The position numbers were made by a program, and so were the translations under genes. A stretch of DNA of 64,000 bases from Tubiluchus corallicola (Eukaryota > Animalia > Priapulida). Below, one piece after another: positions 1,624 through 22,292 of this stretch (positions are counted from its first letter, which is position 1; every line of letters starts with the position of its first letter). Location: positions 1-64,000 of the forward strand of contig JAQGDQ010000189.1 of the NCBI GenBank assembly GCA_030141605.1. The letters run 5' to 3'. Under the pieces are notes generated by a model. The model ran no database searches and was not told the DNA's origin. It worked only from the letters and a program-made list of their open reading frames with translations.

Positions 1624-3410
1624 TTATTGCGCCTCCCAATTGAGAATAGGCCACTGTTCATCATTCACCCATCAAGTATTTGAGAAGTCCCAGTATTCAA
1701 AGACTTCTTTATCCTTTTCAGTATCTTTGTACTTGCTGCCCTCTTTTTTCAAATGGCTGCCACTGCTAACTCCTTTTCCTGCCGGATTTCCAGGAAGTTC
1801 CTGCACTCCTGAACTTTCCTCATCCCAATAACTATAAATATCACTATTTTCAGACGCATCTCCTCCTATCAAGCCACCAAGCAGTGGAGATGCATTATTC
1901 GTCTCTCCGGTGGCATAACAGTTCTCAATTATGGCTGCTCCTGTAGCAGTACAACTTCCTATTAGTCCACCATAAGAGGCCCCTAATCCGCTAAAACCTT
2001 TAGCATCTCCTGTGCTGTAAGAGTTGGTGACGGTGCCTCCAAGGAATCCTATTAAGCCACCTAAGTGATTTGTGCCTTCTACATTTCCCGTAGCCTTACA
2101 CTCATTAATTTTTAAAGCATTTTCATTTTCATTAAAATATCCAAAAGATCCTGCTAATCCCCCGACATGACCGCTGGTACCCTCTGCGGTAACATTTACT
2201 GATGCGGAACTTTTTGATATTTCAAAGAGATCAGTATCAGTAAATGCTCCATATCCTAATACCCCACCAGCGTTATTACCATTATTACTTCCACTACCTT
2301 TTGCCAGTATGGAGCCTCCTGTAATATGGCAGTTAACAATTGTTGAATTGCTTCCATGCCCTACCAACCCAGCAACATGCGAATTTCCAGTTATTCCATT
2401 GCCATCTATTTTTATAATTACATTTTTTATCTCAGCGTTCCGTATATATCCAAACAGGCCTACCCCTTTTGTATTCTCTCTATCTATAAACAAGTTCTCT
2501 ATCACCTTGTCATCACCATCGAGAGAACCCTCGAATCTATTATCATTATTACCGACAGGGTCAAAGCCTTCTGCAGGGAAAGCATCCGGGAATGTGCCTC
2601 CTGTTTGGGAGGGTTCTGGTAGGGATATATTATTTTTCAAAGTATAATGGCCGTTTAAATTATATTGCATTCCTTGTAGATCCTGCCAACTCTTTATATT
2701 ATACTGCTCTTTGGTAGTGTTGTAGCTAAAGGGAGAATATTCTATGTTTAATTTAATGGTAATGTCGCCATCATCTATACTGTTCCAGCTACTGGCAATC
2801 ATCTGGCTCCATTATAATAGCTTACAACAGTGAGAGATGGCTTAATGTATTCTACGATTACAAAATATTCCTGTTCATCACCGTTTCCTGCTGTCACAAC
2901 ATAGGTTACCTCGTGATTGAAATCTGGAGTCGCCCCATCTTTTGTGCTTACAGTTGCATCATCTGATACTGTTATCTCAGGGTTCAATGAGGCTAAATTA
3001 ATGCCAAAAGGAATTTTCGCTGTAATTGTATAGTTGCCCGGTGAAATCTCTCCCGCCACATCATCATTTAATCCTGGATTATCGTCTTTCGTAAATACAA
3101 ATTTTGTAATCTCATTTTCTGTATTTCGCCCTACATTAACCTTTACGTTATAAGTCCGTTTGTCATTATTTTCCGCCGTTACTGTGTAGGATATCTTATT
3201 CTCTGAATTTACACCAAAGTTTATACGCGTTCCACTAGCAGGATTAATCGTGGCCCCCTCCGATATCTTTATTGTAGGAGTTAACTCGAGGTCTGTACCA
3301 AAAGGTACTTCAAGTGTGATATCCGGACCTGTAACATCTTCCGCAGATACATCATCATTTAATCCTGGATTATCTCCTTTCTTAAATACAAAGCTCTTAA
3401 TTGCAGTTCC
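1624..3410 (-). pseudogene. Surface lipoprotein array copy A (divergent, decayed)
   Basis: Two Ig-like modules with no signal peptide (the frame stays open upstream of ORF 2799-3059). A deletion/frameshift near 2800 removes most of the linker. The GLUG head is ORF 1672-2802. After an in-frame TGA at 1672 the frame continues WVNDEQWPILNWEAQ*, matching the WPTLYW C-terminus of the paralogues. Confidence 0.8.
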
Positions 3411-3434
3411 TTTTCTTTCTCCTATTCTTTTTAA

Positions 3435-3502
3435 GTTCTTTTGTCATGACACAAAAGAACCCCAAGATCAAGCCTGTAAATTCTTTTGATGAAAAACTAT
3501 GC
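3435..3502. repeat. Fragment of the dispersed structured repeat (see 48672-49580)
   Basis: GTTCTTTTGTCATGACACAAAAGAACCCCAAGATCAAGCCTGTAAATTCTTTTGATGAAAAACTATGC closely matches 48726-48793. Confidence 0.85.
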
Positions 3503-3537
3503 AAAAAAACCCGTGCTTTTGCAGTAAGCACGGGTTT
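3502..3537 (-). terminator. Intrinsic terminator after copy B
   Basis: Hairpin AAACCCGTGC...GCACGGGTTT with an A-run (U-tract on the minus strand) just downstream of the stop codon. Confidence 0.8.
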
Positions 3538-3573: not shown

Positions 3574-5697
3574 TTAGTTCCCCTGCCAGTAGAGAGTAGG
3601 CCACTGTCCATCACTCTCCCACTTCCATGGGTTATCATCACTGTTACCAAAATTCCAGTCGACGAAAACTTCAGCATCAGGATCCTGGCCCGTGTCATAA
3701 TATTTGCCTTCAGTTTTTCTCAGGTTAGAAGCAGCAGAAACACCTGTTCCTGCACTCGATCTTTCGCCCTGCTCTGCGCTGGCTATATCCCAGTAGCTGT
3801 TGGTAGTCGAATTATTTCCTTGATCGCCTCCAAACCCTCCTGTAGAACCATCATCTTCTCCTGTAACTTTACCTGTAGCATAACACCTTTTTACTAAGGC
3901 ATCAGAATAGTGTAGACGCCCAAAAAATCCTCCTACGTATAGTTTCCCTTCTACATTGCCTGTGGCATAACTATCCTCAATATCTCCCCTGTAAAAACGT
4001 CCTACCAGACCACCAGCATATCCGTCATCTCCAGTCCCCTTTACATTGCCTGTGGCATAACTTCTGTAAACCGTGACATTATGATCGGTAAAACTCTGAC
4101 CAGCTACTCCCACCAGGCCACCAACATAATTACTTCCTGTAACATCTCCCGTGGCATAACTATTTTTAATATAGATGTTTGAATAAGTGGTAGAGTTAAC
4201 ATATCCCGCCAAACCACCGACAGTACTATTTCCCGTTACATTGCCTGTAGTGTAACAGTTGTTAACAGAGCTACTTCGATCAAGTTTTCCCACCAGGCCA
4301 CCGACAGTATTATTTCCCGTCACATTGCCTGTAACATAACAGTTGGCAGCAAATACACCACTAACTATAGCGAGCCCCGCCAGGCCACCAACGTAATCAC
4401 CTCCCGTCACACCGCCATTCGATATTTCTATACCCACATTATTGATGGCTGAAGAGCCAAAAGCATAGCCAATCAGACCTACATATTTTATATTTCTATC
4501 TATAAAGAAATTTTTTATCACAGACCCATTCCCATCAAGTGTGCCTTTAAAACTATCACGCCCACTGCCCAAAGGATTAAAACCTTCTTTAGGTAGCTCT
4601 TCCGGGAAAATGCCTCCTGTTTGTGAGGGTTCTGGCAGCTCTATATCATTCATCAAAGTGTAATGACCTGATAAATCGTCCTTCATCCCCTGCAGATCCT
4701 GCCAGCTCTTTATCTTATACTGCTCTTTGGTTACAGTGTAGGTAAAGTCAATACCTTCAATCTCTAATACAACGTTGATAGTGCCATCATCTATAGACTT
4801 CCAATCAGAAATACTCAGCGTACTGCCTATTGTACCATTACCGTCTTTTACTTCTACTGTACCATTTGCAGTTTTATCTGCTATCTTCAATGTGTAATTG
4901 TAGCTCCCCTCTGCTATATCACTTATCTCAAACAGATCGGGTTTTTCAAAATCCCCTGCTCCTACACGGTTCTCTCTCTCGTAATAGCTCACGGTAGCGA
5001 AAGAGGGCTGTGACTTTACTGTTACAGTATACTCCTGCTGAGTGCTGCCATCTTCTGCTTCTACAATGTATTTTACACCATCAACACCTGAGAAGTCAAC
5101 CCCTGTTTCTCCACTTATTTGTTGTTCTCCATCTACCGTTACTGTGGCTCCATTAGATACCGTAAAAGTGGCTACTAATAACGCTTTTACATCTGTACCA
5201 AAAGGTACTGTTACTGTAATGTCAGTGCCTGTAATATCCCCACCAATGTCTTTGCCTAATATTCCCTGATTATTGCCTGCCTCAAACACAAAAGTTTTGA
5301 TTTTACATTCGGTATTTTGTGCTACTTCAACTGTTACTTTATACTCCTGCTCGTCGCCATTCTCCGCTGTTACTATGTAAGTTGTAGGGTTTGTTTCTTC
5401 AAAGTTTATAGGCACTCCACTAGCAGGATTAATAGTGGCACCATCCGATATCTCTATTGTAGGAGTTAACTCGAGGGCTGTACCAAAAGGAACTGTTAGC
5501 TCAATTTCTGTGCCTGTGATTACACCCGCATCTACATCGACAGCTAATGACCCATTGACACTTTTCCTAAACGCAAACTCAGTAATCAGATTCTCATCGG
5601 AGAGAGGTGGTTTTTCATCCCTTTTTTTGCATCCAAATGTAATAGCTAGGAGCAATATAAGTATATTGATTAGTGGTTTAAATGCTGCAGTTTTCAT
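3574..5697 (-). CDS. Surface lipoprotein array copy B (2 Ig-like stalk modules plus GLUG-repeat head), intact
   Basis: Start taken at MKTAAFK (5697) by comparison with the paralogues. Lipobox ITFG-C followed by KKRDEK; YxVTAE(N/D)G modules; repeated VGGLVG/SYATGNV units. Confidence 0.9.
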   Translation of the reverse strand: MKTAAFKPLINILILLLAITFGCKKRDEKPPLSDENLITEFAFRKSVNGSLAVDVDAGVITGTEIELTVPFGTALELTPTIEISDGATINPASGVPINFEETNPTTYIVTAENGDEQEYKVTVEVAQNTECKIKTFVFEAGNNQGILGKDIGGDITGTDITVTVPFGTDVKALLVATFTVSNGATVTVDGEQQISGETGVDFSGVDGVKYIVEAEDGSTQQEYTVTVKSQPSFATVSYYERENRVGAGDFEKPDLFEISDIAEGSYNYTLKIADKTANGTVEVKDGNGTIGSTLSISDWKSIDDGTINVVLEIEGIDFTYTVTKEQYKIKSWQDLQGMKDDLSGHYTLMNDIELPEPSQTGGIFPEELPKEGFNPLGSGRDSFKGTLDGNGSVIKNFFIDRNIKYVGLIGYAFGSSAINNVGIEISNGGVTGGDYVGGLAGLAIVSGVFAANCYVTGNVTGNNTVGGLVGKLDRSSSVNNCYTTGNVTGNSTVGGLAGYVNSTTYSNIYIKNSYATGDVTGSNYVGGLVGVAGQSFTDHNVTVYRSYATGNVKGTGDDGYAGGLVGRFYRGDIEDSYATGNVEGKLYVGGFFGRLHYSDALVKRCYATGKVTGEDDGSTGGFGGDQGNNSTTNSYWDIASAEQGERSSAGTGVSAASNLRKTEGKYYDTGQDPDAEVFVDWNFGNSDDNPWKWESDGQWPTLYWQGN

Positions 5698-6002: not shown

Positions 6003-8353
6003 TTATTGCCAATAGAGGGTAGGCCATTTACCACCATTATCATCCCACATCCAAGGTTCACTATCACTTGTGCCAAATTCCCAGTTAACGAAAACTTCAG
6101 CATCAGGATCCTGGCCTGTGTCATAATATTTGCCTTCAGTTTTTCTCAGGTTAGAAGCAGCAGAAACACCTGTTCCTGCACTCGATCTGTCGCCCTGCTC
6201 TGCGCTGGCCATATCCCAGTAGCTGTTGGTAGTCGAATTATTTCCTTGATCGCCTCCAAACCCTCCTGTAGAACCATCATCTACTCCTGTAACTTTACCT
6301 GTAGCATAACACCTTTTTACTAAGGCATCAGAATAGTGTAGACGCCCAAAAAATCCTCCTACGCGTTGTATCCCTTCTACATTGCCTGTGGCATAACTAT
6401 CCTCAATATCTCCCCTGAAAAAACGTCCTACCAGACCACCAGCATATCCGTCATCTCCAGTCCCCTTTACATTGCCTGTGGCATAACTTCTGTAAACCTT
6501 GCCATGATTACCGATAGAACTATGACCAACTACTCCCACCAGGCCACCAACATAATTATTTCCCGTTACATCTCCCGTGGCATAACTATTTTTAAAAGCG
6601 CTACTTCGATCAAGAGTTCCCACCAAACCACCGACGTATTATTTCCCGTCACATTGCCTGTAACATAACAGTTGGTAGCAAATAATCCACCAGTATAAAC
6701 GAACCCCACCAGGCCACCAACGTAATCAAGTCCCGTCACACCGCCATCCGATATTTCTATACCCACATTATTGATGTTATAGTTGTTGTTTGTAGAGATA
6801 TTAGTATAGCCAAACAGACCTACATAGTTCTTATTCTCTCTATCTATAAAGAAATTTTTTATCACATACCCATTCCCATCAAGTGTGCCTGTAAAATGAT
6901 CATGCGCATTGCCCAAAGGATTAAAACCTTCTTTAGGTAGCTCTTCCGGGAAAGTGCCTCCTGTTTGGGAGGGTTCTGGCAGCTCTATATCATTCATCAA
7001 AGTGTAACGACCACCTAGATTATCTTTTATCCCCTGCAGATCCTGCCAGCTCTTTATATTATACTGCTCTTTGGTAGTGTTGTAGCTAAAGGTAGAACCT
7101 TCTATGGTTAATTCAATGTCAACATTGCCATTCGGTATAGACTTCCAATCAGAAATACTCAGCTTACTGCCGCGTATTGTACCATTACCGTCTTTTACTT
7201 CTACTGTACCATTTGCAGTTTTATCTGCTATCTTCAATGTGTAATTGTAGCTCCCCTCTGCTATATCACTTATCTCAAACAGATCGGGTTTTTCAAAATC
7301 CCCTGCTCCTACACGGTTCTCTCTCTCGTAATAGCTCACGGTAGCGAAAGAGGGCTGTGGCTTTATCGTAACTGTTACTTCATAGTTCTGCGTAAAGGCT
7401 TCATTTTGTGATGTCACAGTGTAAGTAACAGCGTTTGTAAAGTTGACCTCTGTTTCTCCACTTATTTGTTGTTCTCCATCTACCGTTACTGTGGCTCCAT
7501 TAGATACCGTAAAAGTGGCTACTAATAACGCTTCTACATCTGTACCAAAAGGTACTGTTACTGTAATGTCAGTGCCTGTAATATCCCCATCAATGTCTTT
7601 GCCTAATATTCCCTGATTATTGCCTGCCTCAAACACAAAAGTTTTGATTTCACATTCGGTATTTTGTGCTACAGTAACTGTTACTTTATACTCCTGCTTA
7701 TAGGTTTCATTTTGTGCTGTCACAGTGTAATTAACAGCGCCGTATGTAAAGTTGACCTCTGTTTCTCCACTTGTTTGTTGGTTTCCATCTACCGTTACTG
7801 TGGCTCCCTCAGATACCGTAAAAGTGGCTACTAATAACGCTTTTACATCTGTACCAAAAGGTACTGTTACTGTAATGTCAGTGCCTATAATATCCCCATC
7901 AATGTCTTTGCCTAATATTCCCTGATTATTGCCTGCCTCAAACACAAAAGTTTTGATTTTACATTCGGTATTTTGTGCTACAGTAACTGTTACTTTATAC
8001 TCCTGCTCGTCGCCATTCTCCGCTGTTACTATGTAAGTTGTAGGGTTTGTTTCTTCAAAGTCTATACGCACTCCACTAGCAGGACTAATAGTGGCACCAT
8101 CAGATACCACTATTGTAGGGGTTAGAAAAAGGTTTGTACTAAAAGGAACTTTTAGCTCAATTTCTGTGCCTGTGATTACACCCGCATCTACATCGACAGC
8201 TAATGACCCATTGACACTTTTCCTAAACGCAAACTCAGTAATCAGATTCTCATCGGAGAGAGGTGGTTTTTCATCCCCTTTTTTGCATCCAAATGTAATA
8301 GCTAGGAGCAATATAAGTATATTGATTAGTGGTTTAAATGCTGCTGTTTTCAT
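6003..8353 (-). pseudogene. Surface lipoprotein array copy C (3 stalk modules), single-base frameshift
   Basis: ORFs 6566-8446 and 6003-6626 join if one A is restored near 6636 (CCGAC-GTATT versus CCGACAGTATT in B and H). The true start is MKTAAFK at 8353; the longer ORF start lies inside the IS end. The frameshift could be a sequencing error. Confidence 0.8.
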
Positions 8354-8433: not shown

Positions 8434-9771
8434 GACACTGTTTCACAAAGTGTTAAAACTAAAAAAATACCGAGGGTTTGGCTATTTATAGCTGGACCCT
8501 TTTTTCAAATATAACTAAGAACTGATTCAAGGCAATGCCCCAGTTTCTGATTGGCATTGACCATTTTTTAGTTGCTTCTCTGGTTGCCAAAAATACAGAT
8601 TTCATTACAGCCTGGTCTGACGTGAATGAAAGTTTGTTTTTTGTGTATTTTCTGATTTTTCCGTTGAGATTCTCAATCAGGTTGGTTGTATAAATTATCT
8701 TTCTGATTTCCAGCGGAAACTCAAAGAATACTGTTAGGTCCTCCCAGTTGTCTCGCCAGCTTTTAATTGCGTAAGAGTATTTATCCTCCCAAGCTGCTGC
8801 AAAATCTTCTAAAGCTGCTTTTGCAGCCTCTTTTGTATGGGCGTTATAGATTTGCTTCATATCTTTTGTAAATGCCTTTTTATCTTTCCAAACCACGTAT
8901 CTGCTTGCGTTACGGATTTGATGAACAACACATATTTGTGTTTTAGATTCAGGGGAAACAGTTCGGATAGTATCTGTAAAGCCATTCAAGTTATCTGTTG
9001 CCGTAATCAGGATATCGTTAACTCCACGAGCTTTCATATCGGTAAGTACGTTCATCCAAAAGGCAGCGGACTCACTCTTGCCCAACCATAAGCCAAGAAC
9101 CTCTTTTTTCCCATCTCTGCGAAGTCCTACGGCAATGTAAACGGTTTTGTTGACGACCTTAGAGTTCTCCCGCACTTTAAATACAATGCCATCCATCCAA
9201 ACAATTAGGTATACAATTTCCAGAGGTCGGTTCTGCCACGCTACAATGTCGTTGGTGACTGAATCGGTAATCCTTGATATGGTGGATGTAGAAACTTCAA
9301 AACCGTATAGCTCCCGAATTTGCTCTTCAATATCGCTATTACTCATTCCTTTAGCATAAAACGAAACAATGATATTCTCTAAGCCATCGACCATGTTCCC
9401 TCCTTTGGGTACAATCATCGGATTAAACGAAGCATCACGGTCTCGGGGAACCTGAATGTTGGATTCTCCCAGAGTGGTTCGGACTCTCTTCTCTGAATAG
9501 CCATTGCGGGCATTCTGATTATCCGATTTTTGATTCTTATCATAGCCTAAATGACCATCGAGTTCTCCTTCAAGCATCTTTTCAATGCCTCGTTTTTGGA
9601 GCTCTTGTAAAAAACCATTGAGCTCTTCCCCTGAATTAAACTGTTCAAGGAAATCATCATTTAATAAATCTTCTTTTTTCATTACTGTCTAAAGTTTTAA
9701 AATTAAACAAAAAAATGCCGAGGGTTGCAACCCTCGGCATTTTCTATTTACACAGTTTATGAGATAGTGCT
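8434..9771 (-). mobile_element. IS256-family insertion sequence, copy 2
   Basis: Same termini as copy 1. Flanked by the direct repeat TATTTTAT (8426-8433 and 9772-9779). Removing the IS and one repeat restores the standard array spacer. Confidence 0.95.
8486..9682 (-). CDS. IS256-family transposase
   Basis: 398 aa; differs from copy 1 at about five residues. Confidence 0.95.
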
Positions 9772-9974
9772 TATTTTATTCTGCTTTATTGTTTTTTTTT
9801 AACACTTCTTGTTCTTTATTTCTATCTTGAACCTTTCTTCTATACTGACTTGATGATAGTTTTTTGCTTGTTTATCCAGTGTTTGAGAGGGAATACTTTT
9901 GGTAACAGAATAAAAAACCCGTGCCTTTGTCTGCAGCACGGGTTTGTAGTATTATTTTTGTTTTTCTTAATTAG

Positions 9975-11795
9975 TTATTGCCAATAGAGGGTAGGCCATT
10001 TACCACCATTATCATCCCACATCCAAGGTTCACTATCACTTGTGCCAAATTCCCAGTTAACGAAAACTTCAGCATCAGGATCCTGGCCTGTGTCATAATA
10101 TTTGCCTTCAGTTTTTCTCAGGTTAGAAGCAGCAGAAACACCTGTTCCTGCACTCGATCTGTCGCCCTGCTCTGCGCTGGCCATATCCCAGTAGCTGTTG
10201 GTAGTCGAATTATTTCCTTGATCGCCTCCAAACCCTCCTGTAGAACCATCATCTACTCCTGTAACTTTACCTGTAGCATAACACCTTTTTACTAAGGCAT
10301 CAGAATAGTGTAGACGCCCAAAAAATCCTCCTACGCGTTGTATCCCTTCTACATTGCCTGTGGCATAACTATCCTCAATATCTCCCCTGAAAAAACGTCC
10401 TACCAGACCACCAGCATATCCGTCATCTCCAGTCCCCTTTACATTGCCTGTGGCATAACTTCTGTAAACCTTGCCATGATTACCGGTAGAACTCTGACCA
10501 ACTACTCCCACCAGGCCACCAACATAATTACTTCCTGTAACATCTCCCGTGGCATAACTATTTTTAATATAAGCTGATTGTGTGGTAGAGTTAACTAATC
10601 CCACCAAACCACCGACAGAATTATTTCCCGTTACATTGCCTGTAGTGTAACAGTTGTTAACAGTGCTATTTTTAGCAAGGTTTCCCACCAGGCCACCGAC
10701 AAAATTATTTCCCGTCACATTGCCTGTAACATAACAGTTGGTAGCAAATGCACCATCAACTATAACGAGCCCCGCCAGGCCACCAACGTAATCAAGTCCC
10801 GTCACACCGTCATCCGATATTTCTATACCCACATTATTGATGGCTGAAGAGCTAAAAGCAGAGCCAAACAGACCTACATAATTTATATTTCTATCTATAA
10901 AGAAATTTTTTATCACATACCCTTTCCCATCAAGTGTGCCTCTAAAATGTTCAGGCCCATTGCCCAAAGGATTAAAACCTTCTTTAGGTAGCTCTTCCGG
11001 GAAAATGCCTTCTGTTTGTGAGGGAGCAGGCAGCTCTATATCATTCATCAAAGTGTAATGACCTAGTAGATTATATTTTATCCCCTGCAGATCCTGCCAG
11101 CTCTTTATATTATACTGCTCTTTGGTAGTGCTATGGCTAAATTTATCACTTTCTATGGTTAATTCAATGTCAACATTGCCATTCGGTATAGACTTCCAAT
11201 CAGAAGTACTCAGATTGCCTATTGTACCATTACCGTCTTTTACTTCTACTGTACCATTTGCAGTTTTATCTGCTATCTTCAATGTGTAATTGTAGCTCCC
11301 CTCTGCTATATCACTTATCTCAAACAGATCGGGTTTTTCAAAATCCCCTGCTCCTACACGGTTCTCTCTCTCGTAATAGCTCACGGTAGCGAAAGAGGGC
11401 TGTGGCTTTATCGTAACTGTTACTTTATACTCCTGCTCGTCGCCATTCTCCGCTGTTACTATGTAAGTTGTAGGGTTTGTTTTTTCAAAGTCTATACGCA
11501 CTCCACTATCAGGACTAATAGTGGCACCATCAGATATCACTATTGTAGGGATTAGAAAAAGGTTTGTACTACTAAAAGGAACTTTTAGCTCAATTTCTGT
11601 GCCTGTGATTACACCCGCATCTACATCGACAGCTAATGACCCATTGACACTTTTCCTAAACGCAAACTCAGTAATCAGATTCTCATCGGAGAGAGGTGGT
11701 TTTTCATCCCCTTTATCCCCTTTTTTACATCCAAATGTAATAGCTAGGAGCAATATAAGTATATTGATTAGTGGTTTAAATGCTGCTGTTTTCAT
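9975..11795 (-). CDS. Surface lipoprotein array copy D (1 stalk module), intact
   Basis: 606 aa: lipobox, one Ig-like module, linker, GLUG head. Confidence 0.92.
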   Translation of the reverse strand: MKTAAFKPLINILILLLAITFGCKKGDKGDEKPPLSDENLITEFAFRKSVNGSLAVDVDAGVITGTEIELKVPFSSTNLFLIPTIVISDGATISPDSGVRIDFEKTNPTTYIVTAENGDEQEYKVTVTIKPQPSFATVSYYERENRVGAGDFEKPDLFEISDIAEGSYNYTLKIADKTANGTVEVKDGNGTIGNLSTSDWKSIPNGNVDIELTIESDKFSHSTTKEQYNIKSWQDLQGIKYNLLGHYTLMNDIELPAPSQTEGIFPEELPKEGFNPLGNGPEHFRGTLDGKGYVIKNFFIDRNINYVGLFGSAFSSSAINNVGIEISDDGVTGLDYVGGLAGLVIVDGAFATNCYVTGNVTGNNFVGGLVGNLAKNSTVNNCYTTGNVTGNNSVGGLVGLVNSTTQSAYIKNSYATGDVTGSNYVGGLVGVVGQSSTGNHGKVYRSYATGNVKGTGDDGYAGGLVGRFFRGDIEDSYATGNVEGIQRVGGFFGRLHYSDALVKRCYATGKVTGVDDGSTGGFGGDQGNNSTTNSYWDMASAEQGDRSSAGTGVSAASNLRKTEGKYYDTGQDPDAEVFVNWEFGTSDSEPWMWDDNGGKWPTLYWQ

Positions 11796-11824
11796 ATTCT
11801 TAATAAATTTATTAAAGTGATCTT

Positions 11825-11851
11825 CGCAAAGATAAAGAAAATGTCTTTGCG
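11825..11851 (-). promoter_or_regulatory. Palindrome overlapping a Bacteroidetes -7 promoter box (repeated upstream of copies B-G)
   Basis: CGCAAAGATA-AAGAAAA-TGTCTTTGCG. The minus strand reads TATCTTTG (TAnnTTTG consensus) about 30 bp upstream of the ATG. No clear -33 TTTG at the canonical distance. Confidence 0.6.
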
Positions 11852-12064
11852 GAAAGTTAATTAATTTTATTCTATTCTGCTTTATTGTTTTTTTTTAACA
11901 CTTCTTGTTCTTTATTTCTATCTTGAACCTTTCTTCTATACTGACTTGATGATAGTTTTTTGCTTGTTTATCCAGTGTTTGAGAGGGAATACTTTTGGTA
12001 ACAGAATAAAAAAAACCCGTGCCTTTGTCTGCAGCACGGGTTTGTAGTATTATTTTTGTTTTTC

Positions 12065-14116
12065 TTAATTAGTATATTGCCAATAGAGGGTAGGCCATTT
12101 ACCACCATTATCATCCCACTTCCAAGGTTCACTATCACTTGTGCCAAATTCCCAGTTAACGAAAACTTCAGCATCAGGATCCTGGCCTGTGTCATAATAT
12201 TTGCCTTCAGTTTTTCTCAGGTTAGAAGCAGCAGAAACACCTGTTCCTGCACTCGATCTGTCGCCCTGCTCTGCACTGGCCATATCCCAGTAGCTGTTGG
12301 TAGTCGAACTATTTCCTTGATCGCCTCCAAACCCTCCTGTATAACTATCATCTACTCCTGTAACTTTACCTGTAGCATAACACCTTTTTACTAAGGCATC
12401 ATTATAGTGTAGACGCCCAAAAAATCCTCCTACGTATAGTTTCCCTTCTACATTGCCTGTGGCATAACTATCCTCAATATCTCCCCTGAAAAAACGTCCT
12501 ACCAGACCACCAGCATATCCGTCATCTCCAGTCCCCTTTACATTGCCTGTGGCATAACTTCTGTAAACCTTGCCATGATTACCGATAGAACTATGACCAA
12601 CTACTCCCACCAGGCCACCAACATAATTATTTCCCGTTACATTGCCTGTAGTGTAACAGTTGTTAACAGCGCTACTTCGATCAAGGGTTCCCACCAGGCC
12701 ACCAACGTGATTACGTCCCGTCACATTGCCTGTAACATAACAGTTGGTAGCAAATAATCCACCAGTATAAACGAACCCCACCAGGCCACCAACGTAATCA
12801 AGTCCCGTCACACCGCCATCCGATATTTCTATACCCACATTATTGATGTTATAGTTGTTGTTTGTAGAGATATTAGTATAGCCAAACAGACCTACATAAT
12901 TTATATTTCTATCTATAAAGAAATTTTTTATCACATACCCATTCCCATCAAGTGTGCCTGTAAAACTACGATGACGCGCATTGCCCAAAGGATTAAAACC
13001 TTCTTTAGGTAGCTCTTCCGGGAAAATGCCTTCTGTTTGGGAGGGTTCTGGCAGCTCTATATCATTCATCAAAGTGTAACGACCACCTAGATTATATTTT
13101 ATCCCCTGCAGATCCTGCCAGCTCTTTATATTATACTGCTCTTTGGTAGTGTTGTAGCTAAAGGTAGAACCTTCTAAGGTTAATGCAATGATAATATTGC
13201 CATCATCTATTTCATTCCAGTCAGAAGCAAGCAGCGTACTGCCGCCTATTGTACCATTACCGTCTTTTACTTCTACTGTACCATTTGCAGTTTTATCTGC
13301 TATCTTCAATGTGTAATTGTAGCTCCCCTCTGCTATATCACTTATCTCAAACAGATCGGGTTTTTCAAAATCCCCTGCTCCTACACGGTTCTCTCTCTCG
13401 TAATAGCTCACGGTAGCGAAAGAGGGCTGTGGCTTTATCGTAACTGTTACTTTATAGTCCTGCGTAGAGGTTTCATTTTCTGATGTTACAGTGTAAGTAA
13501 CAGCGCCGTATGTAAAGTTGACCTCTGTTTCTCCACTTGTTTGTTGTTCTCCATCTACCGTTACTGTGGCTCCCTCAGATACCTCAAAAGTGGCTACTAA
13601 CGCTTCTACATCTGTACCAAAAGGTACTGTTAGTTCAATGTTAGTTCCTTCTATCTCTCCGGCGTCAACATCATCCTTGAACCCATTCTTGCCTGCCTCA
13701 AATACATAGCTCGTAATCAAGTTTTCACTACTTCCAGGTAACTTCGTAACTGTTACTTTATACTCCTGCTCGTCGCCATTCTCCGCTGTTACTATGTAAG
13801 TTGTAGGGTTTGTTTTTTCAAAGTCTATACGCACTCCACTATCAGGACTAATAGTGGCACCATCAGATATCACTATTGTAGGGATTAGAAAAAGGTTTGT
13901 ACTAAAAGGAACTTTTAGCTCAATTTCTGTGCCTGTGATTACACCCGCATCTACATCGACAGCTAATGACCCATTGACACTTTTCCTAAACGCAAACTCA
14001 GTAATCAGATTCTCATCGGAGAGAGGTGGTTTTTCATCCCCTTTTTTGCATCCAAATGTAATAGCTAGGAGCAATATAAGTATATTGATTAGTGGTTTAA
14101 ATGCTGCTGTTTTCAT
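12065..14116 (-). CDS. Surface lipoprotein array copy E (2 stalk modules), intact
   Basis: 683 aa, same architecture as the other copies. Confidence 0.92.
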   Translation of the reverse strand: MKTAAFKPLINILILLLAITFGCKKGDEKPPLSDENLITEFAFRKSVNGSLAVDVDAGVITGTEIELKVPFSTNLFLIPTIVISDGATISPDSGVRIDFEKTNPTTYIVTAENGDEQEYKVTVTKLPGSSENLITSYVFEAGKNGFKDDVDAGEIEGTNIELTVPFGTDVEALVATFEVSEGATVTVDGEQQTSGETEVNFTYGAVTYTVTSENETSTQDYKVTVTIKPQPSFATVSYYERENRVGAGDFEKPDLFEISDIAEGSYNYTLKIADKTANGTVEVKDGNGTIGGSTLLASDWNEIDDGNIIIALTLEGSTFSYNTTKEQYNIKSWQDLQGIKYNLGGRYTLMNDIELPEPSQTEGIFPEELPKEGFNPLGNARHRSFTGTLDGNGYVIKNFFIDRNINYVGLFGYTNISTNNNYNINNVGIEISDGGVTGLDYVGGLVGFVYTGGLFATNCYVTGNVTGRNHVGGLVGTLDRSSAVNNCYTTGNVTGNNYVGGLVGVVGHSSIGNHGKVYRSYATGNVKGTGDDGYAGGLVGRFFRGDIEDSYATGNVEGKLYVGGFFGRLHYNDALVKRCYATGKVTGVDDSYTGGFGGDQGNSSTTNSYWDMASAEQGDRSSAGTGVSAASNLRKTEGKYYDTGQDPDAEVFVNWEFGTSDSEPWKWDDNGGKWPTLYWQYTN

Positions 14117-14383: not shown

Positions 14384-16993
14384 TTAATTAGTATATTGCC
14401 AATAGAGGGTAGGCCATTTACCACCATTATCATCCCACTTCCAAGGTTCACTATCACTTGTGCCAAATTCCCAGTTAACGAAAACTTCAGCATCAGGATC
14501 CTGGCCTGTGTCATAATATTTGCCTTCAGTTTTTCTCAGGTTAGAAGCAGCAGAAACACCTGTTCCTGCACTCGATCTGTCGCCCTGCTCTGCGCTGGCC
14601 ATATCCCAGTAGCTGTTGGTAGTCGAATTATTTCCTTGATCGCCTCCAAACCCTCCTGTAGAACTATCATCTACTCCTGTAACTTTACCTGTAGCATAAC
14701 ACCTTTTTACTAAGGCATCATCGTGTAGACGCCCAAAAAATCCTCCTACGCGTTGTATCCCTTCTACATTGCCTGTGGCATAACTATCCTCAATATCTCC
14801 CCTGAAAAAACGTCCTACCAGACCACCAGCATATCCTTCATTTCCAGTCCCCTTTACATTGCCTGTGGCATAACTTCTGTAAACCTTGCCATGATTATCG
14901 GAAAAACTATTACCAACTACTCCCACCAGGCCACCAACATAATTATTTCCCGTTACATTGCCTGTAGTGTAACAGTTGTTAACAACGCTACTTCGATCAA
15001 GGGTTCCCACCAGGCCACCAACGTGATTACGTCCCGTCACATTGCCTGTAACATAACAGTTGGTAGCAAATAATCCACCAGTATAAACGAACCCCACCAG
15101 GCCACCAACGTAATCAAGTCCCGTCACACCGCCATCCGATATTTCTATACCCACATTATTGATGTTATAGTTGTTGTTTGTAGAGATATTAGTATAGCCA
15201 AACAGACCTACATAGTTCTTATTCTCTCTATCTATAAAGAAATTTTTTATCACATACCCATTCCCATCAAGTGTGCCTGTAAAATGATCATGCGCATTGC
15301 CCAAAGGATTAAAACCTTCTTTAGGTAGCTCTTCCGGGAAAGTGCCTCCTGTTTGGGAGGGTTCTGGCAGCTCTATATCATTCATCAAAGTGTAACGACC
15401 ACCTAGATTATCTTTTATCCCCTGCAGATCCTGCCAGCTCTTTATATTATACTGCTCTTTGGTAGTGTTGTAGCTAAAGGTAGAACCTTCTATGGTTAAT
15501 TCAATGTCAACATTGCCATTCGGTATAGACTTCCAATCAGAAATACTCAGCTTACTGCCGCGTATTGTACCATTACCGTCTTTTACTTCTACTGTACCAT
15601 TTGCAGTTTTATCTGCTATCTTCAATGTGTAATTGTAGCTCCCCTCTGCTATATCACTTATCTCAAACAGATCGGGTTTTTCAAAATCCCCTGCTCCTAC
15701 ACGGTTCTCTCTCTCGTAATAGCTCACGGTAGCGAAAGAGGGCTGTGGCTTTATCGTAACTGTTACTTCATAGTTCTGCGTAAAGGCTTCATTTTGTGAT
15801 GTCACAGTGTAAGTAACAGCGTTTGTAAAGTTGACCTCTGTTTCTCCACTTATTTGTTGTTCTCCATCTACCGTTACTGTGGCTCCATTAGATACCGTAA
15901 AAGTGGCTACTAATAACGCTTCTACATCTGTACCAAAAGGTACTGTTACTGTAATGTCAGTGCCTGTAATATCCCCATCAATGTCTTTGCCTAATATTCC
16001 CTGATTATTGCCTGCCTCAAACACAAAAGTTTTGATTTCACATTCACTACTTGCGGGTGCTTCCGTAACTGTTACATTATACTCCTGCTTTTCGCCATTC
16101 TCCGCTGTTACTGTGTAAGTTGTAGGGTTTGTTTCTTCAAAGTTTATAGGCACTCCACTAGCAGGATTAATAGTGGCACCATCCGATATCTCTATTGTAG
16201 GAGTTAACTCGAGGGCTGTACCAAAAGGAACTGTTAGTTCAATGTTAGTTCCTTCTATCTCTCCGGCGTCAACATCATCCTCGAACCCATTCTTGCCTGC
16301 CTCAAACACAAAAGTTTTGATTTCACATTCGGTATTTTGTGCTACTTCAACTGTTACATTATACTCCTGCTTTTCGCCATTCTCCGCTGTTACTGTGTAA
16401 GTTGTAGGGTTTGTTTCTTCAAAGTTTATACCCACTCCACTTTCAGGACTAATAGTGGCACCATCCGATATCTCTATTGTAGGAGTTAACTCGAGGGCTG
16501 TACCAAAAGGAACTGTTAGTTCAATGTTAGTTCCTTCTATCTCTCCGGCGTCAACATCATCCTTGAACCCATTCTTGCCTGCCTCAAATACATAGCTCGT
16601 AATCAAGTTTTCACTACTTCCAGGTAACTTCGTAACTGTTACTTTATACTCCTGCTCGTCGCCATTCTCCGCTGTTACTATGTAAGTTGTAGGGTTTGTT
16701 TTTTCAAAGTCTATACGCACTCCACTATCAGGACTAATAGTGGCACCATCAGATATCACTATTGTAGGGATTAGAAAAAGGTTTGTACTAAAAGGAACTT
16801 TTAGCTCAATTTCTGTGCCTGTGATATCTTCTGCGACTATATCGACAGCTAATGACCCATTGATACTTTTCCTAAACGCAAACTCAGTAATCAGATTCTC
16901 ATCGGAGAGAGGTGGTTTTTCATCCCTTTTTTTGCATCCAAATGTAATAGCTAGGAGCAATATAAGTATATTGATTAGTGGTTTAAATTTCAT
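14384..16993 (-). CDS. Surface lipoprotein array copy F (4 stalk modules), intact
   Basis: 869 aa, same architecture as the other copies. Confidence 0.92.
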   Translation of the reverse strand: MKFKPLINILILLLAITFGCKKRDEKPPLSDENLITEFAFRKSINGSLAVDIVAEDITGTEIELKVPFSTNLFLIPTIVISDGATISPDSGVRIDFEKTNPTTYIVTAENGDEQEYKVTVTKLPGSSENLITSYVFEAGKNGFKDDVDAGEIEGTNIELTVPFGTALELTPTIEISDGATISPESGVGINFEETNPTTYTVTAENGEKQEYNVTVEVAQNTECEIKTFVFEAGKNGFEDDVDAGEIEGTNIELTVPFGTALELTPTIEISDGATINPASGVPINFEETNPTTYTVTAENGEKQEYNVTVTEAPASSECEIKTFVFEAGNNQGILGKDIDGDITGTDITVTVPFGTDVEALLVATFTVSNGATVTVDGEQQISGETEVNFTNAVTYTVTSQNEAFTQNYEVTVTIKPQPSFATVSYYERENRVGAGDFEKPDLFEISDIAEGSYNYTLKIADKTANGTVEVKDGNGTIRGSKLSISDWKSIPNGNVDIELTIEGSTFSYNTTKEQYNIKSWQDLQGIKDNLGGRYTLMNDIELPEPSQTGGTFPEELPKEGFNPLGNAHDHFTGTLDGNGYVIKNFFIDRENKNYVGLFGYTNISTNNNYNINNVGIEISDGGVTGLDYVGGLVGFVYTGGLFATNCYVTGNVTGRNHVGGLVGTLDRSSVVNNCYTTGNVTGNNYVGGLVGVVGNSFSDNHGKVYRSYATGNVKGTGNEGYAGGLVGRFFRGDIEDSYATGNVEGIQRVGGFFGRLHDDALVKRCYATGKVTGVDDSSTGGFGGDQGNNSTTNSYWDMASAEQGDRSSAGTGVSAASNLRKTEGKYYDTGQDPDAEVFVNWEFGTSDSEPWKWDDNGGKWPTLYWQYTN

Positions 16994-17277: not shown

Positions 17278-19883
17278 TTAATTAGTATATTGCCAATAGA
17301 GGGTAGGCCATTTACCACCATTATCATCCCACTTCCAAGGTTCACTATCACTTGTGCCAAATTCCCAGTTAACGAAAACTTCAGCATCAGGATCCTGGCC
17401 TGTGTCATAATATTTGCCTTCAGTTTTTCTCAGGTTAGAAGCAGCAGAAACACCTGTTCCTGCACTCGATCTTTCGCCCTGCTCTGCGCTGGCCATATCC
17501 CAGTAGCTGTTGGTAGTCGAACTATTTCCTTGATCGCCTCCAAACCCTCCTGTATAACCATCATCTTCTCCTGTAACTTTACCTGTAGCATAACACCTTT
17601 TTACTAAGGCATCAGAAAAGTGTAGACGCCCAAAAAATCCTCCTACGTATTTTATCCCTTCTACATTGCCTGTGGCATAACTATCCTCAATATCTCCCCT
17701 GAAAAAACGTCCTACCAGACCACCAGCATATCCGCCATCTCCAGTCCCCTTTACATTGCCTGTGGCATAACTTCTGTAAACCTTGCCATGATTACCGGTA
17801 GAACTCTGACCAACTACTCCCACCAGGCCACCAACATAATTACTTCCTGTAACATCTCCCGTGGCATAACTATTTTTAATATAAGCTGATGATTGTATGA
17901 AAGAGTTAGCTACTCCCACCAAACCACCGACAGAATTATTTCCCGTTACATTGCCTGTAGTGTAACAGTTGTTAACAGTGCTATTTTTAACAAGGTTTCC
18001 CACCAGGCCACCGACAAAATTATTTCCCGTCACATTGCCTGTAATATAACAGTTGGCAGCAAATACACCAGCATCTGCAACGAACCCCACCAGGCCACCA
18101 ACGTAATTATATCCCGTCACACCGTCATCCGATATTTCTATACCCACATTATTGATGGCTGAAGAGGAGCCATAAGCAGAGCCAAACAGCCCTACATAGT
18201 TCTTATTCTCTCTATCTATAAAGAAATTATTTATCCGTCGCAACTTTTACACTATAGATCTGCGTAGCGCTGCCACCTTCTGCTGTTACAGTGTAATACA
18301 TAGCGCCGTATTCAAAGTTGACCTCTGTTACTCCACTTGTTTGTTGTTTTCCATCTACCCTTACTGAGGCGACTCCCTCAGATACTGCAAAAGTGGCTAC
18401 TAACTCTGTTATATCTGTAATTGAAAGGAACTGTTAAGTCAATAGTGAATCCTGTAATCTTTCCTGTGACGTCTTCAGTTATTCCATTAATCTCATTATT
18501 GCCTGTCTCTTTCTCAAACACAAAAGTTGTGATTGCGGGTGCTTCCGTAACTGTTACAGTATACTCCTGTGTGGAGGTTCCATCTTGTGCTGTTACAGTG
18601 TAAGTAACATCGCCTGTAAAGTCGACATCTGTTACTCCACTTACTTGTGTAATTCCATCTACCGTTACTGTGGCTCCCTCAGATACTGTAAAAGTGGCTA
18701 CTAACTCTGTTATAGTTGCATTGTAAGGAGTTGTTAACTCAATAGTGAATCCTGTAATCTTTCCTGTGACGTCTTCAGTTATTCCATTAATCTCATTATT
18801 GCCTGTCTCTTTCTCAAAAGCAAAAGTTTTGATTTCACATTCACTACTTGCGGGTGCTTCCGTAACTGTTACAGTATACTCCTGTGTGGAGGTTCCATCT
18901 TGTGCTGTTACAGTGTAAGTAACATCGCCTGTAAAGTCGACATCTGTTACTCCACTTACTTGTGTAATTCCATCTACCGTTACTGTGGCTCCCTCAGATA
19001 CTGTAAAAGTGGCTACTAACTCTGTTATAGTTGCATTGTAAGGAGTTGTTAACTCAATAGTGAATTCTGTAATACTTCCTGTGACGTCTTCAGTTATTCC
19101 TTCAGTCTCATTATTGCCTTTGTCTTTCTCAAAAGCAAAAGTTTTGATTTCACATTCACTACTTGCGGGTGCTTCCGTAACTTTTACAGTATACTCCTGT
19201 GTGGAGGTTCCATCTTGTGCTGTTACAGTGTAAATAACATCGCCTGTAAAGTCGACATCTGTTACTCCACTTGTTTGTGGGTTTCCATCTACCGTTACTG
19301 TGGCTCCCTCAGATACTGTAAAAGTGGCTACTAACTCTGTTATAGTTGCATTGTAAGGAGTTGTTAACTCAATAGTGAATTCTGTAATACTTCCTGTGAC
19401 GTCTTCAGTTATTCCTTCAGTCTCATTATTGCCTTTGTCTTTCTCAAAAGCAAAAGTTTTGATTTCACATTCACTACTTGCGGGTGCTTCCGTAACTTTT
19501 ACAGTATACTCCTGTGTGGAGGTTCCATCTTGTGCTGTTACAGTGTAAATAACATCGCCTGTAAAGTCGACATCTGTTACTCCACTTACTTGTGTAACTC
19601 CATCTACCGTTACTGTGGCTCCCTCAGATACTGTAAAAGTGGCTACTAACTCTGTTACATTTGTACCAAAAGGTACTGTGAGTGGGATATCTGTGCCTGT
19701 AATTACGCCCGCATCTACATCGACATATAAATTATCCTCATTATTGCCTGCTTCAAATTTAAAACTAATAATTGCGTTTTCACTAGAACGAGGTGGTTCT
19801 TCATCCCCTTTTTTGCATCCAAATGTAATAGCTAGGAGCAATATAAGTATATTGATTAGTGGTTTAAATGCTGCTGTTTTCAT
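17278..19883 (-). pseudogene. Surface lipoprotein array copy G (5 stalk modules), frameshifted and linker-deleted
   Basis: ORF 18378-19883 (lipobox plus stalk) shifts frame near 18420. Near 18235 the fifth module joins directly to INNFFIDRE, so the whole linker is missing. The head is ORF 17278-18243. Confidence 0.85.
18535..19650. repeat. Near-perfect 315-bp tandem repeat (105-aa stalk module) in copy G
   Basis: GCGGGTGCTTCCGTAAC recurs at 18535, 18850, 19165 and 19480. Confidence 0.92.
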
Positions 19884-20173
19884 ATTCTTAATAAATTTAA
19901 GTTAAACAAAGTGATCTTCGTGATCTTCGCAAAGATAAAGAAAATATCTTTGCGGAAAATTAATTAATTTTATTTTTTTTCTGCTTTATTGTTTTTTTTA
20001 ACACTTCTTGTTCTTTATTTCTATCTTGAACCTTTCTTCTATACTGACTTGATGATAGTTTTTTGCTTGTTTATCCAGTGTTTGAGAGGGAATACTTTTG
20101 GTAACAGAATAAAAAACCCGTGCCTTTGTCTGCAGCACGGATTTGTAGTATTATTTTTGTTTTTCTTAATTAG

Positions 20174-22292
20174 TTATTGCCAATAGAGGGTAGGCCATTT
20201 ACCACCATTATCATCCCACTTCCAAGGTTCACTATCACTTGTGCCAAATATCCAGTCAACAAAAACTTCAGCATTAGGATCCTGGCCCGTGTCATAATAT
20301 TTGCCTTCAGTTTTTCTCAGGTTAGAAGCAGCAGAAACACCTGTTCCTGCACTCGATCTTTCGCCCTGCTCTGCGCTGGCTATATCCCAGTAGCTGTTGG
20401 TAGTCGAATTATTTCCTTGATTGCCTCCAAACCCTCCTGTAGAACCATCATCTACTCCTGTAACTTTACCTGTAGCATAACACCTTTTTACTAAGGCATC
20501 ATCATGGTGTAGACGCTCAAAAAATCCTCCTACGCGTTGTATCCCTTCTACATTGCCTGTGGCATAACTATCCTCAATATCTCCCCTGTAAAAACGTCCT
20601 ACCAGACCACCAGCATATCCGTCATTTCCAGTCACCCTTACATTGCCTGTGGCATAACTTCTGTAAACCGTGCCATGATTACCGGAAGAACTATGACCAA
20701 CTACTCCCACCAGGCCACCAACATAATTACTTCCTGTAACATCTCCCGTGGCATAACTATTTTTAATATAAGCTGATGATTGTGTGAAAGAGTTAGCTAC
20801 TCCCACCAAACCACCGACAGAATTATTTCCCGTTACATTGCCTGTAGTGTAACAGTTGTTAACAGTGCTATTTCGAGCAAGTTTTCCCACCAGGCCACCG
20901 ACAGTATTATTTCCCGTCACATTGCCTGTAATATAACAGTTGGCAGCAAATACACCAGCATCTGCAACGAACCCCACCAGGCCACCAACCTAATTATATC
21001 CCGTCACACCGTCATCCGATATTTCTATACCCACATTATTGATGGCTGAAGAGCCATAAACAGAGCCAAACAGCCCTACATAGTCCTTATCCTCTCTATC
21101 TATAAAGAAATTATTTATCACAAACCCATTCCCATCAAGTTTGCCTGTAAAACTATCATCATCCCTATTGCCCAAAGGATTAAAACCTTCTTTAGGTAGC
21201 TCTTCCGGGAAAATGCCTCCTGTTTGTGAGGGAGCAGGCAGCTCTATATCATTCATCAAAGTGTAATGACCTAGTAGATTATATTTTATCCCCTGCAGAT
21301 CCTGCCAGCTCTTTATATTATACTGCTCTTTGGTTGTGCTATGGCTAAATTTATCACTTTCTATGGTTAATTCAATGTCAACATTGCCATTCGGTATAGA
21401 CTTCCAATCAGAAATACTCAGCGTACTGCCTATTGTACCATTACCGTCTTTTACTTCTACTGTACCATTTGCAGTTTTATCTGCTATCTTCAATGTGTAA
21501 TTGTAGCTCCCCTCTGCTATATCACTTATCTCAAACAGATCGGGTTTTTCAAAATCCCCTGCTCCTACACGGTTCTCTCTCTCGTAATAGCTCACGGTAG
21601 CGAAAGAGGGCTGTGGCTTTATCGTAACTGTTACTTCATAGTTCTGCGTAAAGGCTTCATTTTGTGATGTCACAGTGTAAGTAACATCGTTTGTAAAGTC
21701 CTTAGAAACCCCACTTCCCGGTGTGACACTTTTCCCTTTTATGTTAATAGTAGGTGTCAATGATGTTACATTTGTACCGAAAGGTACTGTTACTGTAATG
21801 TCATTGCCTGTAATATCCCCACCAATGTCTTTGCCTAATATTCCCTGATTATTGCCTTTCTCAAAAATAAAACTTGTAATCTCATTGTCATCATCAGATG
21901 TTTCTATAACTGTTACAGTATAGTTCTGCGTAGATGTGCCATCTTGTGCTGTTACAGTGTAAGTAACATCGTTTGTAAAGTTGACCTTTGTTACTCCACT
22001 TGTTTGTTGTTTTCCATCTACCGTTACTGAGGCTCCCTCAGATACCGTAAAAGTGGCTACTAACGCTGTTACATCTGTAATTGAAAGGAACTGTTAAGTC
22101 AATAGTGTAGTTTTCTGAAATATCCCCAGGATCTGTTAATATTCCGTTGTTATTGTCAGCTTCAAAAGCAAATTTCGTGATTTTGTTTTCACTGGATAGA
22201 GGCGGTTTTTCGTCGTCTTTTTTACACCCCAATACAAGAGTGAAGAGTGAAAATAGTAATAGTGTTGTGGATAATTTTGATAATGCTTTCAT
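20174..22292 (-). pseudogene. Surface lipoprotein array copy H (first in transcription order, distinct signal peptide), frameshift plus nonsense
   Basis: MKALSK...LVLG-C KKDDEK starts at 22292. There is a +1 frameshift near 22080 and a TAC>TAG change at 20990 (YNYVGG in G). Its own upstream region has TATATTTG at 22314-22321 (minus strand). Confidence 0.85.

Follow-up and report, generated by a model that had tools for sequence, protein, structure and literature searches.

The window, the whole 64,000-nucleotide stretch of Tubiluchus corallicola contig JAQGDQ010000189.1 analyzed here, carries at 1624–22292 an array of eight co-oriented paralogues on the minus strand (table 1), as the earlier note had claimed. 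The genes share a common build, in which a lipoprotein signal is followed by one to five DUF5018-like Ig modules and, after a linker, by a GLUG beta-helix head, and the Pfam matches of their proteins were confined to GLUG and DUF5018-type families. Only four of the eight copies (B, D, E, and F) have intact open reading frames, and the other four are broken. Copy H carries a frameshift in module 1 near 22080 and an in-frame stop at 20990–20992, and the frameshift in module 5 of copy G is the same lesion as that in module 1 of H. Modules 2 to 4 of G are 315-nt tandem units with 95–98% identity, and this copy could encode a 501-aa stalk lipoprotein without a head. The linker and head of copy B showed about 90–91% identity to those of the other copies, and copy A is diverged (48% amino acid identity to D), with its 5' end adjoining a REP-like repeat. 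The IS256-family element within the array is bounded by a clean 8-bp target duplication (ATAAAATA), and the three IS copies of the window together make up 4.6% of it. The solo ninth paralogue lies 30 kb from the array and is old, with 36% amino acid identity to F, a longest exact DNA match to the array of 19 nt, and a linker region 41% identical to that of the array. The four broken copies, the missing signal peptide of A, the IS256 element in the array, and the ninth paralogue had escaped the earlier note.

Table 1. Coordinates of the array copies and associated features (positions in the window)
Feature	Position	Strand	Description
Copy A	1624..3424	-	Remnant: without signal peptide, linker partly lost, internal stops
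Copy B	3574..5697	-	Intact, 707 aa from MKTAAF: signal, 2 modules, linker, full head
Copy C	6003..8353	-	Signal, 3 modules, linker, head; frameshift near 6637 at hybrid rung
Copy D	9975..11795	-	Intact, 606 aa: signal, 1 module, linker, full head
Copy E	12065..14116	-	Intact, 683 aa: signal, 2 modules, linker, head minus one rung
Copy F	14384..16993	-	Intact, 869 aa: signal, 4 modules, linker, head minus one beta-helix rung
Copy G	17278..19883	-	Signal and 5 stalk modules; linker and head start absent near 18240
Copy H	20174..22292	-	Signal peptide, 2 stalk modules, linker, GLUG head; pseudogene
Conserved linker block	7175..7359 (in C)	-	About 185 nt identical in B, C, D, E, F, and H
E-to-D spacer	11796..12064	-	Terminator-like hairpin, then TATCTTTG -7 motif at 11827-11834
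IS256-family element	8434..9772	-	In D-C spacer; Mutator transposase 8486-9682
IS256 element, second copy	221..1559	-	99.0% identical; directly downstream of copy A
Solo ninth family member	51639..55001	-	1120-aa lipoprotein, 7 modules, same linker and GLUG head

By inspection, a signal peptide II with a lipobox cysteine was recognized in copies B to H and in the solo copy. The optimal surface-export signal of Bacteroidota given in PMC5080379 is C-X-K-(D/E)2, with a net negative charge; among the array copies only H (CKKDDE) fits it, and the others carry near variants shifted by one, CKKRDE in B and F and CKKGD in C, D, E, and G. Thus, of the lipobox and K/D/E export signature reported earlier, the lipoprotein signals stood, whereas the optimal motif was restricted to a single copy. 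A structure model of the linker and head of D reached a pLDDT of 88.7, whereas single-sequence fold prediction gave only 43.7. The head model aligned with the N-terminal domain (NTD) of an IgA1 protease (7uvk; Z 30.2, rmsd 2.7, 276 residues aligned) and with BACOVA_03286 (3n6z; Z 29.9, rmsd 3.0, 267 residues aligned), and on this model the GLUG head is predicted to fold like the noncatalytic N-terminal domain of IgA1 metalloproteases. Identity with the M26 IgA1 metalloproteases themselves was rejected: the NTD-like beta-helix is there and the catalytic domains with HExxH are not, as no HExxH was found in the linker and head of B, D, E, F, and H, the array proteins stop after the beta-helix cap without a middle or catalytic domain, and the Zmp models scored 19–25 bits against a cut-off of 3000. 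The V-G-G-L/F core is invariant at the amino acid level in all seven rungs, and the variation sits beside it.

We addressed the relationships among the copies by comparing them segment by segment. Exact tracts of 1014, 715, 314, 265, and 263 nt were shared between different copy pairs, and copy C is a patchwork of E-, B-, F-, E-, and D-like tracts. In particular, C at 6003–6513 showed no mismatch in 511 positions to D at 9975–10485 (within an exact run of 715 nt) as against 12 mismatches to E, its segment at 6645–7657 matched F at an offset of 8388 without a mismatch in 1013 positions, and its HSSIGN loop lies in an exact C/E match of 201 nt. The second module of C is 98% and 95% identical to that of B in its first two thirds and resembles the second module of E in the last third. 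D, E, and F have first modules with 96–99% identity, and the linker and head of E are nearest to those of F (96.8%) and then of C (96.0%). Every mosaic feature recorded in the earlier note was thus confirmed. Nearest neighbors switched between stalk and head and also along the head. The earlier note had also proposed recombination detection and segment trees as checks, and both supported exchange in the one haplotype of the array on which our recombination and selection analyses were performed. The PHI test was significant in six copies (p = 0.0002), with 38% of informative-site pairs incompatible, and the same p value was obtained for five copies without C and for the four intact copies alone; thinning of clustered sites left p = 0.017 and 0.006. 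In AU tests, the tree of the 3' segment was rejected for three upstream segments (p = 6e-9, 4e-4, and 0.034), and the upstream-segment trees were rejected for the 3' segment (p = 4e-4, 0.005, and 0.048); the trees of the three upstream segments did not reject one another. These incongruent histories upheld recombination-driven mosaicism. The first 64 codons of the linker held one synonymous and two nonsynonymous changes, and these three changes, compared with 41% identity in the solo paralogue, suggested that the linker is kept by homogenization rather than by intrinsic constraint. The conserved block within it is a candidate crossover platform.

The heads also differed in the kind of change that they had accumulated. 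Across the beta-helix of the four intact copies, we counted 68.2 nonsynonymous versus 6.8 synonymous changes, a ratio of 3.3 (bootstrap 1.9–8.9, p = 7e-4) for regions whose borders were fixed after a first look at the data; the ratio was 4.4 with G and H added, and the codons with single-base changes comprised 30 nonsynonymous and two synonymous ones. Maximum likelihood put omega at 11.9, improving on omega = 1 by 20 log units; this estimate is inflated by the small number of paralogues and their recombination. As controls, the C-terminal cap gave a ratio of 0.39 and the IS transposase six synonymous versus five nonsynonymous changes. Stalk ratios were 0.81, 1.42, and 4.36 on small counts, and the C-terminal half of the linker with the cap gave about 1.15; thus, much of the locus looks simply unconstrained. 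The nonsynonymous excess in the beta-helix points to diversifying selection, as judged from the codon counts. We rejected rung-to-rung exchange as its cause, since the ratio was still 3.6–4.7 after five of the 57 variable codons, those with a context recurring in another rung, had been dropped. A diversity-generating retroelement target was likewise rejected: 26 of the 87 variable helix sites lack A, the scanned open reading frames of the window held no reverse transcriptase, and the share of A at variable helix sites (0.70) is like that of other regions (0.69 and 0.75). We also considered that the locus might be a tandem array decaying under relaxed selection in an IS-rich genome, with recombination as a passive by-product and a patchwork without adaptive role. 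The broken half of the copies, with one lesion present in two of them, the IS within the array, and the stalk and cap ratios near 1 are all consistent with this explanation. However, relaxation yields ratios of at most 1 rather than the 3–4 of the beta-helix with its 30 to 2 single-base changes, the same genes hold the cap at 0.39 and the rung core invariant, and removal of the recurring-context codons left the ratio high; we regarded decay as an improbable explanation.

The earlier note had likened the locus to the vls and sap systems. Seven of the eight copies have a full signal peptide and their own spacer, and a terminator-like hairpin follows each of B to H; a spacer near-identical to that between E and D also occurs at H-G, G-F, F-E, D-C, and C-B. 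The Bacteroidota -7 motif TANNTTTG stands at an equivalent place upstream of D, E, F, and G and is also found upstream of H (as a motif only), and B and C are preceded by TATCTTTA instead; TANNTTTG occurs 104 times in the window compared with 75 expected, so that alone it is weak evidence. A sigma-70 promoter scan, whose model does not apply to this phylum, stayed at chance level. Judging from these elements, each copy is probably its own transcription unit. All copies of the array point the same way, and apart from hairpins there is no long inverted repeat (among 97 inverted pairs, the 25 longest were hairpins or weak matches); no recombinase or reverse transcriptase was found among the window open reading frames scanned. 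The analogy was thus not supported: there is no bank of promoterless cassettes and no single expression site, and the own signal peptide and hairpin of seven copies and the -7 motif of five indicated that the array is not of the vls or sap type. Dedicated antigenic variation, in which one copy is expressed and is rewritten or switched fast enough to vary within one host, would account for the segmental mosaics, the diversified exposed head, and the broken copies as possible donors. Some read contigs do carry joins not present in the window, and window-specific alleles fell below the flank in contig depth (20 vs. 57 in X1 and 7.4 vs. 13.1 in X2 for a piece private to C), but contig depth is not cell share, and a strain mix or extra loci explain the depths equally well. 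Against this background of self-contained, co-oriented genes, we regarded such a switch as quite improbable.

The depth of the shared linker contig in X1 was 452, and the read contigs hint at further copies or haplotypes beyond the assembled array. A 13.5-kb read contig matches 22073–22499 without gaps. Read contigs leave 6572–6611, 6700–6743, and, in X1, 19842–20508 uncovered, which proves nothing. Of these, 6572–6611 is the C-private frameshift stretch, and a stretch common to C, E, and F also lacks exact cover. An origin of C as an assembly chimera, put together from D, E, and F by collapse or polishing, is very improbable. It would fit the near-complete composition of C from tracts that other copies share exactly, the lack of any read record across the whole array, and the uncovered C-private stretch. 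However, the C-private junction at 7652–7738 is present exactly in a contig in both X1 and X2, pieces only or mainly of C and F have about twice the C-private depth (40.8 and 43 vs. 20.3 in X1, 13 vs. 7.4 in X2), the recombination signal persists without C, and the IS in the D-C spacer has its clean target duplication.

The earlier note had placed the DNA in a host-associated member of the Bacteroidetes. Bacteroidota origin was supported by DnaN (67% to Prolixibacter) and GcvT (69% to a Prolixibacteraceae genome), whereas the abundance of IS elements was the sole pointer to host association. Searches returned many GLUG proteins (6932 matches among 7987 candidates scored) and neither a close relative nor a second strain, the best GLUG matches being at most 48% identical. 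Matches were found in 10 of 151 sampled Prolixibacteraceae genomes, and the 20 Prolixibacteraceae matches listed all start at query residue 79 or later, past the conserved linker block. None of the flanks of 20 gcvT loci matched D, and the 12 metagenome loci were all generic GLUG matches. The linker profile, run without a positive control, matched none of 401 genomes of the order, and it matched no viral contig; among the proteins fetched, the linker was present only in P0119. The atlas gave no match, a region search that started from the solo copy came up empty, and a lead to Ichthyobacterium seriolicida yielded nothing. The earlier note did not recognize the combination of Ig stalk and GLUG head; such proteins do exist elsewhere (P0262 has a GLUG head on a DUF5018-type stalk), and no paper on a mosaic GLUG lipoprotein array surfaced in a literature search without subscription papers and supplements.

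Taken together, we proposed, with a probability of about 0.62, that this is a tandem array of predicted surface lipoproteins whose segments were exchanged, likely by unequal crossover and gene conversion, and whose heads were likely diversified by selection on a binding surface. Ordinary homologous recombination would use the parts that are identical between copies (spacer, signal region, linker, and rung framework), homogenizing these shared blocks, shuffling stalks and head segments between copies, and altering stalk length (one to five modules) and rung number. Several variants may be displayed together on stalks of differing length; the head would be a noncatalytic binding domain that serves as adhesin or receptor and is caught in an arms race, whether against a molecule of the host, a predator, or phage, and spent copies would decay or act as passive sequence donors. 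The locus is thus likely to hold a repertoire of binding proteins for the cell surface that shuffles itself, and not an antigen switch that works one gene at a time. More tentatively, the array could represent an undescribed variable-receptor system of Bacteroidota, with GLUG lipoproteins codisplayed on stalks of differing length and rung-by-rung segmental conversion fast enough to leave several array versions in one host, in a symbiont lineage without a sequenced close relative; if true, this would be a coexpressed, antibody-like repertoire without a single expression site. PMC12632263 describes surface variation in Bacteroidota in terms of diversity-generating retroelements and DNA inversion; an array of paralogues that recombine under positive selection would be a third route. 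GLUG beta-helices are very common and mostly uncharacterized; the array marks rung positions evolving under selection, which are the likely binding face, and its four intact natural head variants are suited to expression and comparison.

Among known proteins, the M26 IgA1 metalloprotease NTD (7uvk, 6xja, and 7jgj) and 3n6z of Bacteroides ovatus share the head fold (Z 26–30), to which the head, assigned to GLUG (PF07581) in Pfam, has a weak sequence match. The NTD of the pneumococcal enzyme is described as touching the IgA1 Fab (PMC7695701); the array head, however, is multicopy and carried on a lipoprotein Ig stalk, and IgA binding is not implied. The same repeated Ig-like stalk behind a lipoprotein signal occurs in DUF5018-stalk lipoproteins of Bacteroidota and other groups (PF16410 and PF22243; BT_2081-like 3hbz), and the heads on 40 stalk matches scanned included LRR, FGE-sulfatase, lectin, LamG, WD40, and others. 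Mycoplasma vsa and vpma, also invoked earlier, and the invertons of Bacteroides switch by inversion or a site-specific recombinase, a mechanism that calls for inverted crossover sites or copies together with a linked recombinase. In Borrelia burgdorferi vls, as in the array, a surface lipoprotein has a mosaic variable region arising from segmental conversion among adjacent copies; however, the single expression site of vls receives sequence, in one direction only, from 15 silent partial cassettes that lie in the opposite orientation (PMC3585125), whereas the array copies are all co-oriented whole genes, so that the segmental mosaics are shared and the silent cassettes are not. Campylobacter fetus sap is likewise a cluster of recombining full-length surface-protein homologues, but its one promoter transcribes only the homologue behind it (PMC3887049), whereas most array copies have their own promoter-like motif and terminator. 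In the lpl cluster (nuSa-alpha) of Staphylococcus aureus, whole lipoprotein genes stand in tandem, each with a conserved block in its middle that separates variable 5' and 3' parts, and repeated crossover among them leads to deletions and duplications as well as to apparent conversion (Tsuru and Kobayashi 2008, PMC2568036). The array shows the same central conserved block and incongruent 5' and 3' histories, although the proteins are unrelated (no Lpl family match in Pfam), the lpl spacers are typed and those of the array near-identical, and fine conversion is called minor in lpl (PMC2568036) whereas segmental exchange pervades the array head. Stalk length also changes by whole Ig modules in the array, and head omega is above 1. 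By analogy, the array would work most like S. aureus lpl, through unequal crossover and conversion via shared blocks, with gene birth and death.

The array comprised eight co-oriented paralogues, identified by self-comparison and six-frame translation over 20,669 nt of the minus strand and lying in the transcription order H, G, F, E, D, C, B, A. We concluded that it is a real, recombining array under birth-and-death evolution, whose genes encode lipoproteins, predicted to lie at the surface, with a beta-helix head that is diversifying. All sequence claims of the earlier note on the array were confirmed, as copy C was exactly identical to D over 715 nt, to F over 1014 nt, and to E over 201 nt. 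The first stalk modules of D, E, and F were 96-99% identical. Only B, D, E, and F were intact: C carried a frameshift at a hybrid rung (one beta-helix turn), G carried a frameshift and lacked the linker and the head start, H had the frameshift of G plus a stop, and A lacked a signal peptide and was 48% identical to D. The solo ninth member was 36% identical to F in amino acids, and its longest exact DNA match to the array was at most 19 nt; it exchanges no DNA with the array, for which it forms a natural outgroup.

Recombination was analyzed in 1334 gap-free columns of six copies, leaving out A (diverged) and G (partial). Among the 83 informative sites, 38% of pairs were incompatible, and the PHI test gave p = 0.0002, the lowest value that 5000 permutations can yield; this signal was kept without C and in the four intact copies, and was weaker yet present after clustered sites were thinned (p = 0.017 and 0.006). 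AU tests set the 3' segment apart from three upstream segments, which did not reject one another. The stalk modules were also mosaic, the beta-helices of E and F were one rung short, and G2-G4 were tandem units of recent origin. The near-identity of the spacers, signal regions, and linker extended to synonymous sites, and these regions thus offer long homology for crossover.

Three sequencing runs of one sample contained the stretch and could themselves be where the window comes from. The read evidence consisted of assembled contigs, with depths given here for runs X1 and X2. The junction private to C was matched exactly in both, at ~0.35 and 0.57 of the depth of the flank, pieces common only or mainly to C and F had ~2x the depth of this junction, and the shared linker, present in six copies in the window, reached ~8x flank depth in X1, contig depth being distinct from the share of cells. 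The frameshift stretch of C itself was without contig cover, as was one shared control stretch. Contig forms absent from the window comprised an A-like gene with extra sequence upstream, an IS end fused to a B-like 3' end, and different alleles in the head of A. The contig evidence speaks against C as an assembly invention, with a hint of additional loci or of more than one haplotype; a mixture of strains explains the depths equally well.

Selection was estimated by counting every distinct codon allele once, with the beta-helix taken as model residues 191-400 and the region borders chosen after a first look at the data. Among B, D, E, and F, the beta-helix showed 68.2 non-synonymous versus 6.8 synonymous changes (ratio 3.3, p = 7e-4), all such estimates being drawn from few, mutually recombining copies; with G and H added, the counts were 90.2 versus 6.8. 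The ratio was 0.39 in the C-terminal cap and 1.15 in the linker C-half plus cap subdomain, control IS transposase copies showed 6 synonymous versus 5 non-synonymous changes, and ML omega reached 11.9 in the helix, versus 1.07 in the cap subdomain. The beta-helix ratio was 3.6-4.7 once codons possibly derived from another rung were removed, and single-base codon changes there numbered 30 non-synonymous versus 2 synonymous. The variable positions sat beside the invariant V-G-G-L core of the rungs; adenine-specific variation was not seen in the beta-helix. The stalk ratios (0.81, 1.42, and 4.36) show little constraint, which, like the late choice of borders and the few, recombining copies, counts against the selection reading.

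A full copy consisted of a signal peptide II, one to five stalk modules (~95-105 aa each, matching the DUF5018-type Ig fold), a ~100-aa linker, and a GLUG head. The linker and head of D were modeled from a 93-row alignment (pLDDT 88.7), and the modeled head matched the IgA1 metalloprotease N-terminal beta-helix and BACOVA_03286 with Z 26-30, versus at most 19.6 for other beta-helices; HExxH and a catalytic domain were searched for in the heads and were absent. Because this domain touches the IgA1 Fab in the pneumococcal enzyme, as described in PMC7695701, the head is by analogy a putative binding domain. The Bacteroidetes surface-export signature proposed earlier was present in its optimal form (as outlined in PMC5080379) in H and as near variants in B-G; with only H carrying the optimal form, the copies are predicted to be likely surface-exposed. 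DUF5018-type stalks bore many different heads among 40 stalk hits scanned, and, because the database proteins P0262 (stalk plus GLUG head) and P0119 (linker plus head) combine the same parts, the parts list of the array proteins is not unique. A 940-aa GLUG-repeat protein (P0006) is annotated on a 25.6-Mb contig of the coral Oculina patagonica, reflecting either transfer or contamination.

Coordinates of the array and other features of the window
Feature	Position	Strand	Remarks
Array, copies A-H	1624-22292	-	
IS256-family element	between D and C		8-bp target duplication
Second IS256-family element	downstream of A		
Scar beside this IS	1558-1615		second IS end motif plus 48-nt piece from near the element's opposite end
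Third IS256 copy	63713-64000 (element start 63750)		leaves window at its end; 37-nt end twice in tandem, 63713-63786
Intergenic repeat family, REP- or MITE-like	3416-3500; 39183-39274; 39976-40148; 48667-49577		47-nt unit; one copy adjoins truncated 5' end of A
993-aa protein	24371-27352	-	weak receiver-domain match; PPDK/PEP-synthase N-terminal domain; homologue also near gcvT in locus L006, one of the loci compared
Futalosine hydrolase	40944-41627	+	score over curated cut-off
Pentapeptide-repeat protein	49609-51150	-	513 aa; 33-nt periodic repeat; hydrophobic C-terminal part
Solo ninth family member	51639-55001	-	1120 aa; 7 stalk modules; array-type architecture
GldF and GldG, fused	57700-60123	+	gliding-motility ABC subunits in one 807-aa ORF

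Across 20 loci, GcvT was no more than 69% identical to its nearest counterpart, from a Prolixibacteraceae genome, and DnaN shared 67% identity with Prolixibacter, so the source is a poorly sampled lineage near Prolixibacteraceae. The IS contig depth in X1 (~1600-1800, versus 57 for the flank) suggests IS expansion. In symbiont genomics, such expansion is a mark of recent host restriction, and by this analogy it suggests the same here. The futalosine hydrolase suggests the futalosine route to menaquinone. Plus-strand genes between 27000 and 64000 showed a strongly positive GC skew that was often 0.2-0.4 per kb.

A terminator-like hairpin followed each of B-H; TANNTTTG, equal to the Bacteroides -7 consensus as given in PMC12632263, stood upstream of D, E, F, G, and H, and TATCTTTA took its place upstream of B and C. 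This pattern of predicted signals fits independent transcription units, and the likeness to vls and sap suggested in the earlier note was not borne out: vls, as described in PMC3585125, has a single expression site with 15 silent cassettes, and sap, in the account of PMC3887049, has one promoter, whereas in the array most copies have their own hairpin and promoter-like motif. The window ORFs that were scanned included neither an invertase nor a reverse transcriptase. Strict-sense antigenic variation was not supported; switching within the population is possible. Neither this kind of recombining array with a Bacteroidota GLUG head nor its selection signal turned up in the literature searched. 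The type of mechanism is already known from lpl and similar clusters, and the array closely matches the recombination model described for Staphylococcus aureus lpl in PMC2568036.
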